DNA of 64,000 bases from Eledone cirrhosa (GCA_964016885.1 OZ024742.1:87296001-87360000); one strand, 5' to 3'. Counted from the stretch's first letter, positions 6,951-33,966 are shown. Program-made: numbers and translations. The notes: generated from the sequence alone by a model not told the origin.

Positions 6951-7669
6951 TGGATAATAATATTAATAATAATTCATATAATCATGTTGGTTTTCATTTT
7001 TACATCAAATTGTAAATAAAGGCAGAGCAGTTAAAAAATCAATTGAATGACGAATCATAATTGCTGACAACTGAAAATGATGTGCACAGAATTTCTGACT
7101 GATAATTGTAGCGAAGTAGGATGCTGTCGGATTGTAGTTTCGTCGGGATATATTCGATTAAGAGGTTTCTTTATTGGAAATGAGTAGTTGCAGGTAATGA
7201 TATCTCTCGTGGATTAGACTATTTTGAAACGTCACAATCAATAATTTTTGACATAATCAGGTTAATACATGTTTAATATATATACATTAAATACTATTTA
7301 GTATAGTGTTATTATTTATTAGTCTGTATTTTCTGAGTGTATATAGATACAAACATGGGGCACAGGTACACATTTTCACACAAAGACGAAAAAACACACG
7401 CACGCTTATATATTTCTACATATTCTCATATATCTATACTTATCTATACATATATATATATATATATATATATATATATATATATATATATATATATATA
7501 TATATATATATATATATATATATATATATATTAAAAAAGTTAAACAAGATTCAATGAGTATATCAGAGAATGAGTTTTAGAGTAGATTGGAAGCATTCTA
7601 CGGTAAATAATTTTCCAGAGTTATTAATATTAAAATACAAATATTAATGAAATAGATATTCTTTTGATC

Positions 7670-7733
7670 AATTACATTTTATTATACATATTTCGGAGGT
7701 ACAACAGTACGTCCTCATCAGAAAAAATATAAT
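7670..7733 (-). ncRNA. Minimal type-I hammerhead ribozyme
   Basis: Minus strand CTGATGA GGACGTAC tgtt GTACCTCC GAAA TATGTA TA, followed by a stem I partner. Confidence 0.75.
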
Positions 7734-9155
7734 GATGCATGACATACCCTGAGATGTTAAATGGCTAAGATTTAATCAAGGTAGTGATTAACCTACTGGC
7801 CTTTAATATTGCATTATCTTATAACTATCTATAGAAGAAATAACGCTCGAATGAATGACATTTGTTCAATAACACGCCGGCACATTGATATACATAACGT
7901 AATATTATTAACTCTGACCCATACCATTATTTCTCTATCTTTATTTTCCTATCTGAGTTTTAAATTCTAGTTTAAATATCCAACCTTCATATTTTTACGA
8001 AAATTATATTTTACTGTGAATCTTTCATGTGTTTACATTTTCGATTACTTATTTATAATATGTATGTAATTATCTTTTGTAAGTTTTTTAAATATACCTA
8101 TCGTATTTTTATATCCATGATTCAAAGACAGAGCAAATAACAAAACTATAAATTATTATGGACCTTATATTGAACTCTGAATTATCCATGCATTTATTTT
8201 TATTTTTCTCATAGATATGTATGTTTTTAACTGTAACGGGCCGAAATCCTTTATATAAGATTATAATCGTCGTCATTTACCTAAAGTATACTGTAACACT
8301 AATACCTAATATTTATCTATATATAACTCCCTATATCTCTCTATACATAACCTTTAGATAACTTCTAAATTTCTAGATTATTATTTATTTTGAACTATGA
8401 ATAATTCATGCATTTACACCCTGTTATATATATATATGTATCTATTTAACTTTAGCATGCTTCAATCTATTACTTTATATTCGTTATCATTTACCTAAAA
8501 TATACTGGCTCACTGATATATATGTATATACATAATCGTTATTTACATATCTCTAACAATAAGTACTTCATAAGCTTTACATACTAAAAATGTTGACATT
8601 TTTATAGATTATCTTCGTTAAAGTTTACATTTAGGAAAATATTCAACAGTGTAAATTTTCCTTTCGCTGGCCAGGTAAATCCTTTAAATATTACCCTCAT
8701 AAAATTCAGAAGTTAGAAAGGTTAACACACTTATATAATTTATAAAACTAATAAATATAAATAACCAACAACTTTTAATAACAACCTTAAATCTTGATTC
8801 TTCAGCCTAAAATAACATACATTAAATATTGTAAAAGTTAACCATTTAGATTTTGGAAAAAATCTTTTTCTGCATATATAACCACCTTCATCTTTCCCTG
8901 TCTCTAAATCCCATCTCAGCGGCCCTCATTGACTGTTATAATTCATGATAAGATTTCCTAGATAAACATAACTTGTAGTATCCTACATTTTAAAATCTTT
9001 ATAGCTGTCACATTAACCAACGTTTTTTCTTACTCACACATTCTCTATTGAATTTACTATGTTTTCGCATTTTCTCATTATTAGGGTATACATGTTGAAT
9101 TTTCACTACCTTGATTAAATCTTAACCATTTAACATCTCAGGGTATGTTATGTAT

Positions 9156-9220
9156 AATTATATTTTGTCTGATGAGGATGTACTGTTGTACCTCCGAAAT
9201 ATGTATAATAAAATGTAATT
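9156..9220 (+). ncRNA. Minimal type-I hammerhead ribozyme
   Basis: AATTATATTTTGT CTGATGA GGATGTAC tgtt GTACCTCC GAAA TATGTA TA^ATAAAATGTAATT. 13-bp stem I with G.U pairs, intact core, predicted cleavage after 9207. Confidence 0.85.
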
Positions 9221-9387
9221 GATCAAAAGAACATCTATTTTATTAATATTTGTATTGTAATATATATATATATATATATATATATATATATATATATATA
9301 TATATATATATATATATATATATATAGTGTGTGTGTGTGTATAATATATATATATATATATATATATATATATATATATATATATAT

Positions 9388-31579: not shown

Positions 31580-31617
31580 CGAGAACAAATGTTTCACCTT
31601 AGCGGATCCTCAGCTCG
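31580..31617 (-). ncRNA. Minimal hammerhead motif
   Basis: CGAG CTGAGGA T CC gctaa GG T GAAA CATTTG TT^CTCG. Confidence 0.7.
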
Positions 31618-31669
31618 TAATGGACATGGTTATACGTGATGGACATGTTCCGTATAAACATGTCCATTA

Positions 31670-31707
31670 CGAGCTGAGGATCCGGTAGGGTGAAATATCT
31701 GTTCTCG
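31670..31707 (+). ncRNA. Minimal hammerhead motif (mirror copy)
   Basis: CGAG CTGAGGA T CC ggtag GG T GAAA TATCTG TT^CTCG. Confidence 0.65.
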
Positions 31708-33966
31708 GTATGGTGAATTAACTCTTGTGTAACCACTTCTAACTAACTCGTCTCATGGACTGAGTGCTCTACCACTATATATATATATATATATATATAT
31801 ATATATGTGTGTGTGTGTGTGTGTGTGTGTGTGTGCGTGTGTGTGTCTGTGTCTGTGTATGTATGTGTGTGCATGTGTGTCTGTGTGTTTGCGTGTGTGC
31901 ATATGTGAGTGTGTGTGAGTGTCTGTCTGTGTATGTGTGTCTGTGTAGGTAAATATATATTTCCTTCCTGGGAATATAAACGTCTCACCATATTACGTAA
32001 GTTTTACACATGCATTCAAAGTAACCTAATATGTGTTGCATAGTGATACATAGGGATGTTTATGTACCTATTTACTTATATCTCACGTAATATCAATAAA
32101 TCTATATGCATTAAGTTTTTCCCTCATCTATACCCCTCCTCCCGTTCTACCCTCGCAGAGAATCATACAATTTAGAGCTTATCCTGTGATTATCTGCTGT
32201 AAAAAAAAAAAATGTATTCACTATAATGTCTACTTTGTACGACGCAAATAAACTATATCTATGTAGATTAAACGGATATTGTATGAAGCACTTGGATTTT
32301 AATTTGCATGCCGACAGTAATATAAGGGAAAATTCGAGATATTATCGTAAATATGTTTAGCATCATTTATGTGGAGCCAAATAGTCTGTTCCTAATACAC
32401 GTTGTTGTAGATTATCTTTAGCATACTTATCTTTTTGTTCAATGAAACACCTGACAAGGTGAGCTTTTGCTGGAAACGGTATAATGTATTTTCTCAAATG
32501 ATTCCACAAGGCCTTTGTATATATATCTATGATTTCGTACGTTTTCAATTACCGGGGATCATCCTTCTTGAATATTTTTAATCCTTTGACGACCCAGTCA
32601 TTTCGGTAATGGTGTCAACGATAAAACCATCACAAATACGTTCAGTTAGTTTTACAATGATATATACTTTAATGGTCAGCCGAGTAAAAATTCGAACAAT
32701 GAAGCACACGTATACTTTCGCAGTATAAGATTCACCTTCCAATTGTCAGTTGAATGTGAATTAACGATCGAATATTGCTCTAGTGACTCTTCAATTTGTT
32801 CAGATAAATATATATAAATGGTTCAAAGTATATTCAATTATGGACTCAGGTTGACAGTCGAAGGTGCATTTACTTTCTGACTGCAATGAATACACAACAT
32901 TCCTTTCTACACTTGATATACTTTAATCCAAACATATGCACACTTTCAGATATCTAGGAAAAGTTAACTGACTAAACTCAAATCTATATCCATTGTAGCT
33001 TTAGACGAAACAATTAGCGTTCAACATCCGCAAAATCTAGGTGTGTTTCTTCAATAATCATGTATGCCTAGGCGAGAAGGAAAATGATTTCTTTGTATGG
33101 GAATAGGAGTACATGCTGAATTAATTTGTGTTCTGTATTTCAGACGTAAATCACATGACCTCACTTCTGACATATACATTCCATTTTAATGGTTCTTATC
33201 TAAAATAGATTCAGCCATCTTACAGATAATTCTAACATGTGTTAAAAAATGCAAATTCTGCAAGAGAAACTTAAAGAAACCATAACAAATTCTTAGATTT
33301 CGACAAACAATGATAATCGCTAATAAATGAGCCTAAACCTATTTATTTGAGTTTATTATCAGCAAAAATATCCTGACATATTACATTTCTACCTACAAGA
33401 TGATAAATTATTTTCCAAACGGTCATTTAATATGCTTGCAATAACAGCTAATATCAGCATATGTCTACTGGCAGACGATGGGAAAGTCAGGTATAAATTA
33501 TACAAAACAGTTTGAAGCACATTTCTATATTTTATGAAGATCCATGTCATTTATTATTTACAATAATAACGTGGTAAAGAAACACACTACCATGTGAATA
33601 TATGTACCACACGCATGTAAACATCGCATATACTCATACATATAAAACGTAATCATATACACTCAAGCGTGCTCTCAAACGTGCATTTTTCAATTGTTAG
33701 GATCAATGTTTTCATTGATGTTGAAAAAGATTATCAATAGCAAATTTCCTTCGCTGTTAAAATTTCTCGTTTTATTTCCATTTATATTACACATTTCGAC
33801 GTAATTAAATATTGGAACAGAACCATGTGCTGAGATAAATCTTGGAAATAGTTCATGTTGTATGTTTACACGAACAACACAGTTGTAGTGGACCAATACA
33901 TAAAACGAGACAATTATTTATAAAAATATTGAACGACCGTATCCAGAATACGCTGTAACATAAGCC

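Follow-up and report, generated by a model that had tools for sequence, protein, structure and literature searches.

Hammerhead motifs at TA repeats in an Eledone cirrhosa genome stretch as probable 3' ends of eight Penelope-like families, two of them gene-less

A stretch of 64,000 nucleotides from Eledone cirrhosa (GCA_964016885.1 OZ024742.1:87296001-87360000; hereafter the window, with positions counted from its first letter) was analysed for hammerhead ribozyme motifs lying beside TA repeats. Very probably, the motifs are the hammerheads of the 3' pseudo-long terminal repeats (pLTRs) of eight TA-targeting families of Penelope-like elements (PLEs). Six families (F1, F3, F4, F6, F7 and F8) are represented by truncated copies of elements with open reading frames (ORFs); the other two (F2 and F5) are gene-less and likely copied in trans. 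A first-pass annotation of the window had described about 12 hammerheads as a cluster of diverse non-coding passengers in small elements, beside the PLEs that could mobilise them. Most of this, namely hammerheads carried by the truncated ends of PLEs beside TA repeats, is known biology. The new, testable part consists of the two gene-less families, a rule for the two ends of inverted insertions, a tail hairpin and fixed core variants.

All 12 positions proposed earlier were found to hold a hammerhead or a hammerhead-derived motif, with cores starting at the following positions.

7721 (- strand) and 9169 (+ strand): F1
9633 (- strand) and 10059 (- strand): F2
11600 (- strand): F3
15240 (- strand) and 15393 (+ strand): F4
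25293 (- strand) and 26155 (+ strand): F5
28060 (- strand): F6
31613 (- strand) and 31674 (+ strand): F7

An exact CUGANGA...GAAA...UH core with stems I and II was present at 8 of the 12 sites. Three cores have decayed, namely those at 9633 (CUGA broken), 10059 (GAAU) and 26155 (GUAA); the core is kept by the majority of copies in F1-F5 and F7 (up to 26/27; 34/45 for F2 and 40/55 for F5). The site at 28060 represents a family-wide variant (U3-A8 plus C13), not decay. A 13th hammerhead-like motif, absent from the first-pass annotation, was found at 17628 on the minus strand and belongs to F8. As had been proposed, the motifs are of minimal type I, with a stem III of 4-6 nt that is palindromic or near-palindromic in all seven families (CUAG, GUAC, CCGG, UGAUCA, CAAUUG, UAUGUA with one G-U pairing, and GGAC with tandem G-A). 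Stem III of F8 is a normal hairpin, unlike the short, dimer-permitting palindromes of the other families. The estimate of at least seven sequence-unrelated families also held, since the sole blastn match shared among the seven was 12 nt long, and F8 makes an eighth. Every site lies 66-342 nt from a (TA)5+ tract, in line with the claim that all adjoin TA repeats.

The shuffling control that had been suggested was performed with a strict type I descriptor, which gave 5 matches in the 7-32 kb region and 0 in each of 60 dinucleotide-shuffled versions; a first, over-strict descriptor had given 1 real match. The strict descriptor overlooks the intact sites 7721, 15240 and 15393, and because intact, decayed and variant cores escape it, its counts are lower bounds. 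An Rfam scan of the window showed no hammerhead family among the 150 of 187 matches listed, only a microRNA-type hairpin and other sub-threshold matches. We regard the window motifs as genuine hammerheads at the level of sequence motifs. CUGAAGA at 17378 and 17488 and CUGAUGA at 10810 were rejected as hammerheads, the GAAA partner being absent.

The E. cirrhosa genome (3.0 Gb) is TA-rich. It was sampled in 48 stretches of 10 kb (480 kb), taken at round positions on 24 contigs. The strict descriptor gave 44 matches in this sample, against 1, 1 and 0 in three shuffled versions. This density of 0.92 per 10 kb (about 90 per Mb) extrapolates to 1.7-3.9 x 10^5 per genome (bootstrap; a lower bound). 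The 5 strict matches in the 64-kb window are average by comparison, so the motifs do not form a cluster, and their nearness to the window's PLEs therefore carries no meaning. The linkage to TA repeats was borne out: 33 of the 44 sampled hammerheads lay within 250 nt of a (TA)5+ tract, compared with 33% for random positions. Tracts were found downstream in 35/44 and upstream in 17/44. Both the proximity and the downstream bias support the proposed TA-targeted PLE system. Every family proved repetitive, with 961-3,773 first-look candidates per genome search, of which 40 were scored for each window element. All fetched loci pooled contained 256 distinct hammerhead sites in 38 clusters, 19 of them with at least two members.

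The copies of the ORF-bearing families in the window are listed below; long and short refer to two alternative 3' ends that are treated further on.

7534..9260, + strand: F1 insertion, 3' untranslated region (UTR) and pLTR of a Hydra-type PLE, truncated immediately after the ORF; the main arm (7794-9260, +) has the short end and the inverted arm (7534-7793, -) the long end
11400..14900, - strand: F3, broken Neptune-like PLE with reverse transcriptase (RT) and GIY-YIG pieces at 14779-12003 and its own 3' UTR hammerhead
14980..15595, unstranded: F4, fold-back stub derived from another Neptune-like PLE; 15240 (-) at the long end, 15393 (+) at the short end
16478..17310, - strand: second F3 fragment, endonuclease (EN) region; hammerhead segment absent
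17309..18039, unstranded: F8, Hydra-type PLE 3' ends around a TA tract; core CAGAAGA at 17628 (-), with A at position 4; inverted arm with an RT fragment at 17637-18039 (+)
27918..29768, - strand: F6, truncated Neptune-like PLE; EN frame 29768-29085, 3' UTR and variant hammerhead UUGAAAA...GCAA
31548..31776, unstranded: F7, fold-back stub of a Hydra-type PLE; 31613 (-) at the short end, 31674 (+) at the long end

At least 5 of the 9 F1 loci continue upstream from the 1.4-kb 3' UTR into RT and GIY-YIG sequence. The hammerheads of F3 and F6 lie in the UTRs of window PLEs themselves (12003-14779, a 3' UTR, and 29085-29768, respectively), and the same linkage was found for F3 in 14 of 19 other loci; for F6, ORF linkage was found in 8 of 19 loci. 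F4 joins a GIY-YIG frame in 5/19 loci (464 aa in locus L154) and F7 joins EN in 5/24. F1, F4 and F7 have no ORF within their copies in the window. Read together with their longer relatives, the window copies of F1, F3, F4, F6 and F7 are 5'-truncated insertions of ORF-bearing PLEs. ORF linkage was weaker for F8, being direct in 1 of 14 loci and by way of the inverted arm in 3. At 17309-17557 two long F8 ends with 97.6% identity face each other across a single TA tract, a geometry opposite to that of the usual inverted insertion.

The Hydra-type motifs (a CxCX5C linker, absence of CCHH, and CxxC plus CxH around the E and N of a C-terminal EN) were found in natural frames in L014, L151, L152, L153 and L181, and are carried by 55 and 66 of 75 homologs. 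RWK was present in 49/75 and DKT in 74/75 homologs of the F7 frame; the sole F1 copy reaching this region reads DKA and begins behind RWK. By these motifs F1, F7 and F8 would be Hydra-clade PLEs. F3, F4 and F6 have a CX2-5CxxC linker, CCHH in the GIY-YIG and GIY-YIG Pfam matches, and GxKF and DKG-type motifs were found in F3 and F6 only. Their motifs suggest that these three families are Neptune-like (Neptune or Nematis).

It is hardly credible that most or all of the seven families first listed are non-coding ribozyme passengers gathered beside mobilising PLEs. The passenger description fits F2 and F5, and F1, F4 and F7 are indeed free of ORFs in the window; it is refuted for F1, F3, F4, F6 and F7, whose longer copies continue into an RT/GIY-YIG ORF of their own, and the genome-average density of hammerheads speaks against any gathering. 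Of the earlier claim of diverse non-coding passengers, the part that concerns F2 and F5 thus remained.

Two discrete 3' ends, both TA-flanked and separated by about 40-140 nt, occur in every family; in most families they are used roughly equally. When outward-facing inverted pairs were counted, 102 of the 107 combined one long with one short end (LS), while 3 had two long ends (LL) and 2 had two short ends (SS). LS pairs made up 13/13 in F1, 22/22 in F2, 2/2 in F3, 19/20 in F4, 10/11 in F5, 17/17 in F7 and 19/22 in F8; a first pass had given 86/90 (p 2e-21). The tail was found on either arm. That a tail is present at one end was known qualitatively (Arkhipova 2013; see also Craig et al. 2021, PMC8557442).

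According to the mechanism that we propose, an RT-GIY-YIG ribonucleoprotein, likely a dimer, would nick a (TA)n tract on both strands and prime cDNA from two internal RNA start sites, one per strand. The cDNAs would halt early and join head to head. The hammerhead lies 30-200 nt upstream of the start sites, which is why nearly every insertion, even a short one, would leave a hammerhead, or two, next to TA. Through the palindromic stem III the ribozymes may cleave as dimers, and multimeric transcripts of the 424-nt F2 unit may be cut to monomers or circles. It is less probable, but deserves consideration, that inverted arms arise from self-priming on an antisense template or from later fold-back repair, instead of priming on both target strands. 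Arkhipova (2013) interprets palindromes at inverted junctions as self-priming, and several window insertions are near-perfect fold-backs; such an origin, however, does not predict a tail on exactly one arm with either arm possible.

The two gene-less families are represented in the window by one insertion each.

9381..10390, - strand: F2 insertion, made of two non-coding 424-nt units arranged head to tail (core at 10059 -, decayed core at 9633 -); inverted arm 10245-10390 (+, long end)
25184..26404, - strand: F5 insertion, internally deleted copy of a non-coding pLTR-flanked element of about 2.3 kb; the main arm (25184-26050, -) has the short end and core 25293, the inverted arm (26050-26404, +) the long end and the decayed core 26155

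F2 was examined in 20 similarity-picked loci and in 30 position-ordered loci, several of which are one and the same insertion and 2 of which yielded no block under the filter. The loci contained only permutations of the 424-nt unit (partial tandems and inversions) and no common 5' flank. The copies are dispersed across many contigs, and arrays reach 5 units among the 100 matches listed. The 34-nt intact ribozyme of F2 has 9,371 exact copies in the genome (reversed control, 0); the 480-kb sample contained 0 matches to F2, with about 1.5 expected. The unit has a G + C content of 36.8%, no ORF and one hammerhead, which agrees with the definition of a non-LTR retrozyme (a tandem unit of 150-450 nt with G + C under 50%). 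Its fold z-score is -9.8, in part due to a TA/TG palindromic segment. By its structure F2 is a retrozyme-like non-autonomous element. A second retrozyme-like family was observed in locus L273 (8630-9683), where a 311-nt tandem hammerhead unit is present in four copies plus one inverted.

The F5 unit of 2.1-2.4 kb was spanned end to end in 10 of 13 long loci, in most cases with a portion of its 3' end repeated ahead of it, and direct hammerhead repeats lie 2.2-2.4 kb apart. Its interior contains no sense ATG frame of at least 80 aa. No ORF was found inside the unit or in up to 6 kb upstream, and tblastn with 75 full-length Hydra-type proteins gave no match, save a nested PLE in locus L266. The 50-nt ribozyme of F5 has 1,937 copies. 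With a 2.1-2.4-kb unit and a partial terminal repeat, F5 exceeds the tandem limit of about 1 kb and was rejected as a non-LTR retrozyme; non-autonomous PLE appears to be the better term.

Both families show PLE-type insertion traits: a partial-tandem pLTR, an inverted 5' arm, a tail at one end and a microsatellite target. That both obey the long-plus-short rule (32/33 pairs) is the chief argument for their movement by PLE enzymes, and it is likely that F2 and F5 are copied in trans by a PLE enzyme. Trans-mobilisation would be unneeded if DNA-level events had spread F2 as a local minisatellite of old pLTR origin, and if F5 were a long 3' UTR belonging to a PLE with a missed ORF. Satellite-like local amplification from pLTRs is indeed proposed by Li 2026 (10.64898/2026.07.22.740005), long UTRs exist, as in F1, and the loci examined numbered only 50 for F2 and 13 long ones for F5. 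We nevertheless consider this improbable, given the dispersal of F2, its TA-flanked two-site ends with 22/22 pairs long plus short, and the closure of F5 units at their 5' side by their own 3' end, with direct hammerhead repeats.

Several points weigh against PLE 3' ends as the source of the motifs and against trans-mobilised F2 and F5. TA tracts are ubiquitous (22 per 10 kb) and so frequent that about one third of positions lie near one by chance. The long-plus-short rule is violated by 5 of the 107 pairs, a pair being defined as the nearest opposite TA-flanked ends within 3.2 kb in loci chiefly picked by similarity; F6, whose reference end is uncertain, was excluded from the count, and had given 2 LL pairs in the first pass. 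In vitro, Frangieh 2024 (PMC11167929) found no between-strand difference in start sites. The fetched loci contained no intact full-length autonomous ORF, the longest frame being 464 aa. F2 has no sequence in common with the other window families, and its movement and that of F5 by PLEs is suggested by a genomic signature. Ribozyme activity is a prediction from genome sequence.

The F6 and F8 families carry fixed changes in the core. At position 13 of F6, C was found in 3,972 exact copies and A in 24, and the core UUGAAAA...GCAA was present in 27 of 30 copies. At position 4 of F8, A was found in 16,609 exact copies and U in 74. U3-A8 and U10.1-U11.1 are known, tolerated hammerhead variants, while A13 and U4 within the core are treated as invariant by Perreault 2011, so that F6 and F8 fall outside the type I hammerhead in this respect. 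F6 is considered hammerhead-derived because a sister family (locus L220) retains GAAA. Literature searches showed no C13 or A4 hammerheads; figures and most supplements lay outside these searches, so such variants are possibly in print. Cleavage is likely weak or dispensable in both families, and the simplest reading would be that it is dispensable for their amplification. About 150,000 PLE-linked hammerhead variants were reportedly described by Lunse and co-workers (2017).

Just behind the short end, the Hydra-type families share the pattern RCTC-(hairpin)-GAGY-RCY. It was counted in 8/9 copies of F1, 11/14 of F5, 11/17 of F7 and 6/8 of F9 (see below), and in six further clusters; these family counts are not independent, since some families are related. 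In two of the six clusters ACTC/GAGT has been swapped for GCTC/GAGC, a compensatory change. F8 has the GCTC/GAGC stem, with the full pattern in only 1/15. The pattern was absent from F3 (0/21) and F4 (0/6) and present in 1/27 copies of F2; its background rate is 0.7% of 150-nt windows. F5 was grouped with the Hydra type because it has this hairpin. The pattern rests on a descriptor count, as the five-way alignment of the tails was poor. The searches mentioned above gave nothing on a Hydra tail hairpin. We propose it as a candidate recognition element. F9 is present in the window as follows, and also at 36046-36246.

18446..18614, - strand: F9, short stub flanked by TA and abundant in the genome, with the hairpin of the Hydra-type tails; hammerhead absent in this copy

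In two longer F9 copies (L031 and L054) the upstream part contains UUGAAAA, followed by a long stem and GAAA, which may be a degenerate hammerhead.

Tentatively, and with less confidence than the assignment to PLE 3' ends, one RT-endonuclease dimer may act per insertion, its subunits on different start sites and strands and positioned by the hairpin in Hydra. F2 and F5 would then be hijackers, F6 and F8, two of the most successful families, would have cores that are either dead or rescued by a contact or protein, and a few hundred thousand hammerheads would be present per genome.

Solo and opposite-strand minimal hammerheads were proposed to be 5'-truncated PLE insertions by Cervera and de la Pena 2014 (PMC4209133). 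Like the metazoan pLTR hammerheads described there, those of E. cirrhosa have a tiny palindromic helix III, many families per genome, an extra nucleotide after A9 (here F4), U3-A8 covariation (here F6), and, from truncated PLEs, both solo sites and pairs on opposite strands at distances of 100-700 bp. They differ in number (about 90 per Mb, 1.7-3.9 x 10^5 extrapolated, against 9,000 reported for Xenopus), in the replacement of G10.1-C11.1 by U-U in five families and, from what the available parts of that paper describe, in the fixed C13 and A4 variants. According to Craig et al. 2021 (PMC8557442), Hydra, Neptune and Naiad target (TA)n, and its supplement includes a Hydra family of Octopus bimaculoides at (TA)n. 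Our families resemble the Hydra and Neptune EN+ PLEs of that study in the C-terminal GIY-YIG, the (TA)n targets, the inverted 5'-truncated copies and the one-ended tail; they differ in tail length (40-140 nt against 30-40), in the common RCTC...GAGY hairpin of the Hydra-type tails and in the gene-less 2.3-kb member with such a tail. In our searches, cephalopod PLE hammerheads appeared only in Craig 2021 and in an Rfam count for giant squid.

F2 resembles metazoan non-LTR retrozymes (Cervera and de la Pena 2020, PMC7229834; Li et al. 2026, 10.64898/2026.07.22.740005) in being, at the DNA level, an ORF-less 424-nt unit of 37% G + C with one type I hammerhead, occurring as monomers to multimers with strong self-pairing. 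Unlike those, it has the PLE signature of two start sites and an inverted arm; Cervera 2020 and Li 2026 deduce a link to PLEs from co-occurrence and from the similarity of pLTRs. The longest unit in Li 2026 (972 bp) is less than half the length of F5. For Anolis Poseidon in vitro, Frangieh 2024 (PMC11167929) reported a tail between two internal RT start sites, extension of both target strands, a predicted dimer, and target-primed reverse transcription that is independent of the hammerhead. The two start sites bounding the tail are shared with our families; the difference is that here, in the seven families counted, they are almost always split between two arms. These papers state as open which enzyme mobilises retrozymes in animals, why the PLE tail is one-ended and what the hammerhead does in PLE transposition. 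Defined substrates for these questions are now at hand: two families that lack genes and whose RT start sites are mapped, the 102/107 rule, the candidate hairpin, and two core variants that occur naturally in thousands of copies.

At 7-32 kb, the window consists of retroelement pieces densely packed among TA tracts around a single host exon (19131-19358, + strand) that encodes a Sushi/CCP domain (Pfam E 6e-11); the pile likely sits within introns of this host gene. TA-adjacent fold-backs without a hammerhead core were observed at 26698-26853 (also in loci L107 and L254) and at 33967-34112. A diverged repeat pair at 10762-10860 and 11096-11189, also in locus L073, contains CUGAUGA without GAAA. 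Non-LTR elements of the RT-restriction-endonuclease type, from two families each terminating at (TTA)n, are stacked at 40431-62883 (- strand) and at 2543-5965, with one frame of 1,141 aa at 40431-43856. A common repeat of about 190 nt, resembling a short interspersed nuclear element, is present at 22720-23150, 6760-6950 and 38150-38380 and inside several fetched elements. Finally, locus L149 (4921-5934, - strand) contains an intronless DNA polymerase beta frame of 338 aa, a possible retrogene.

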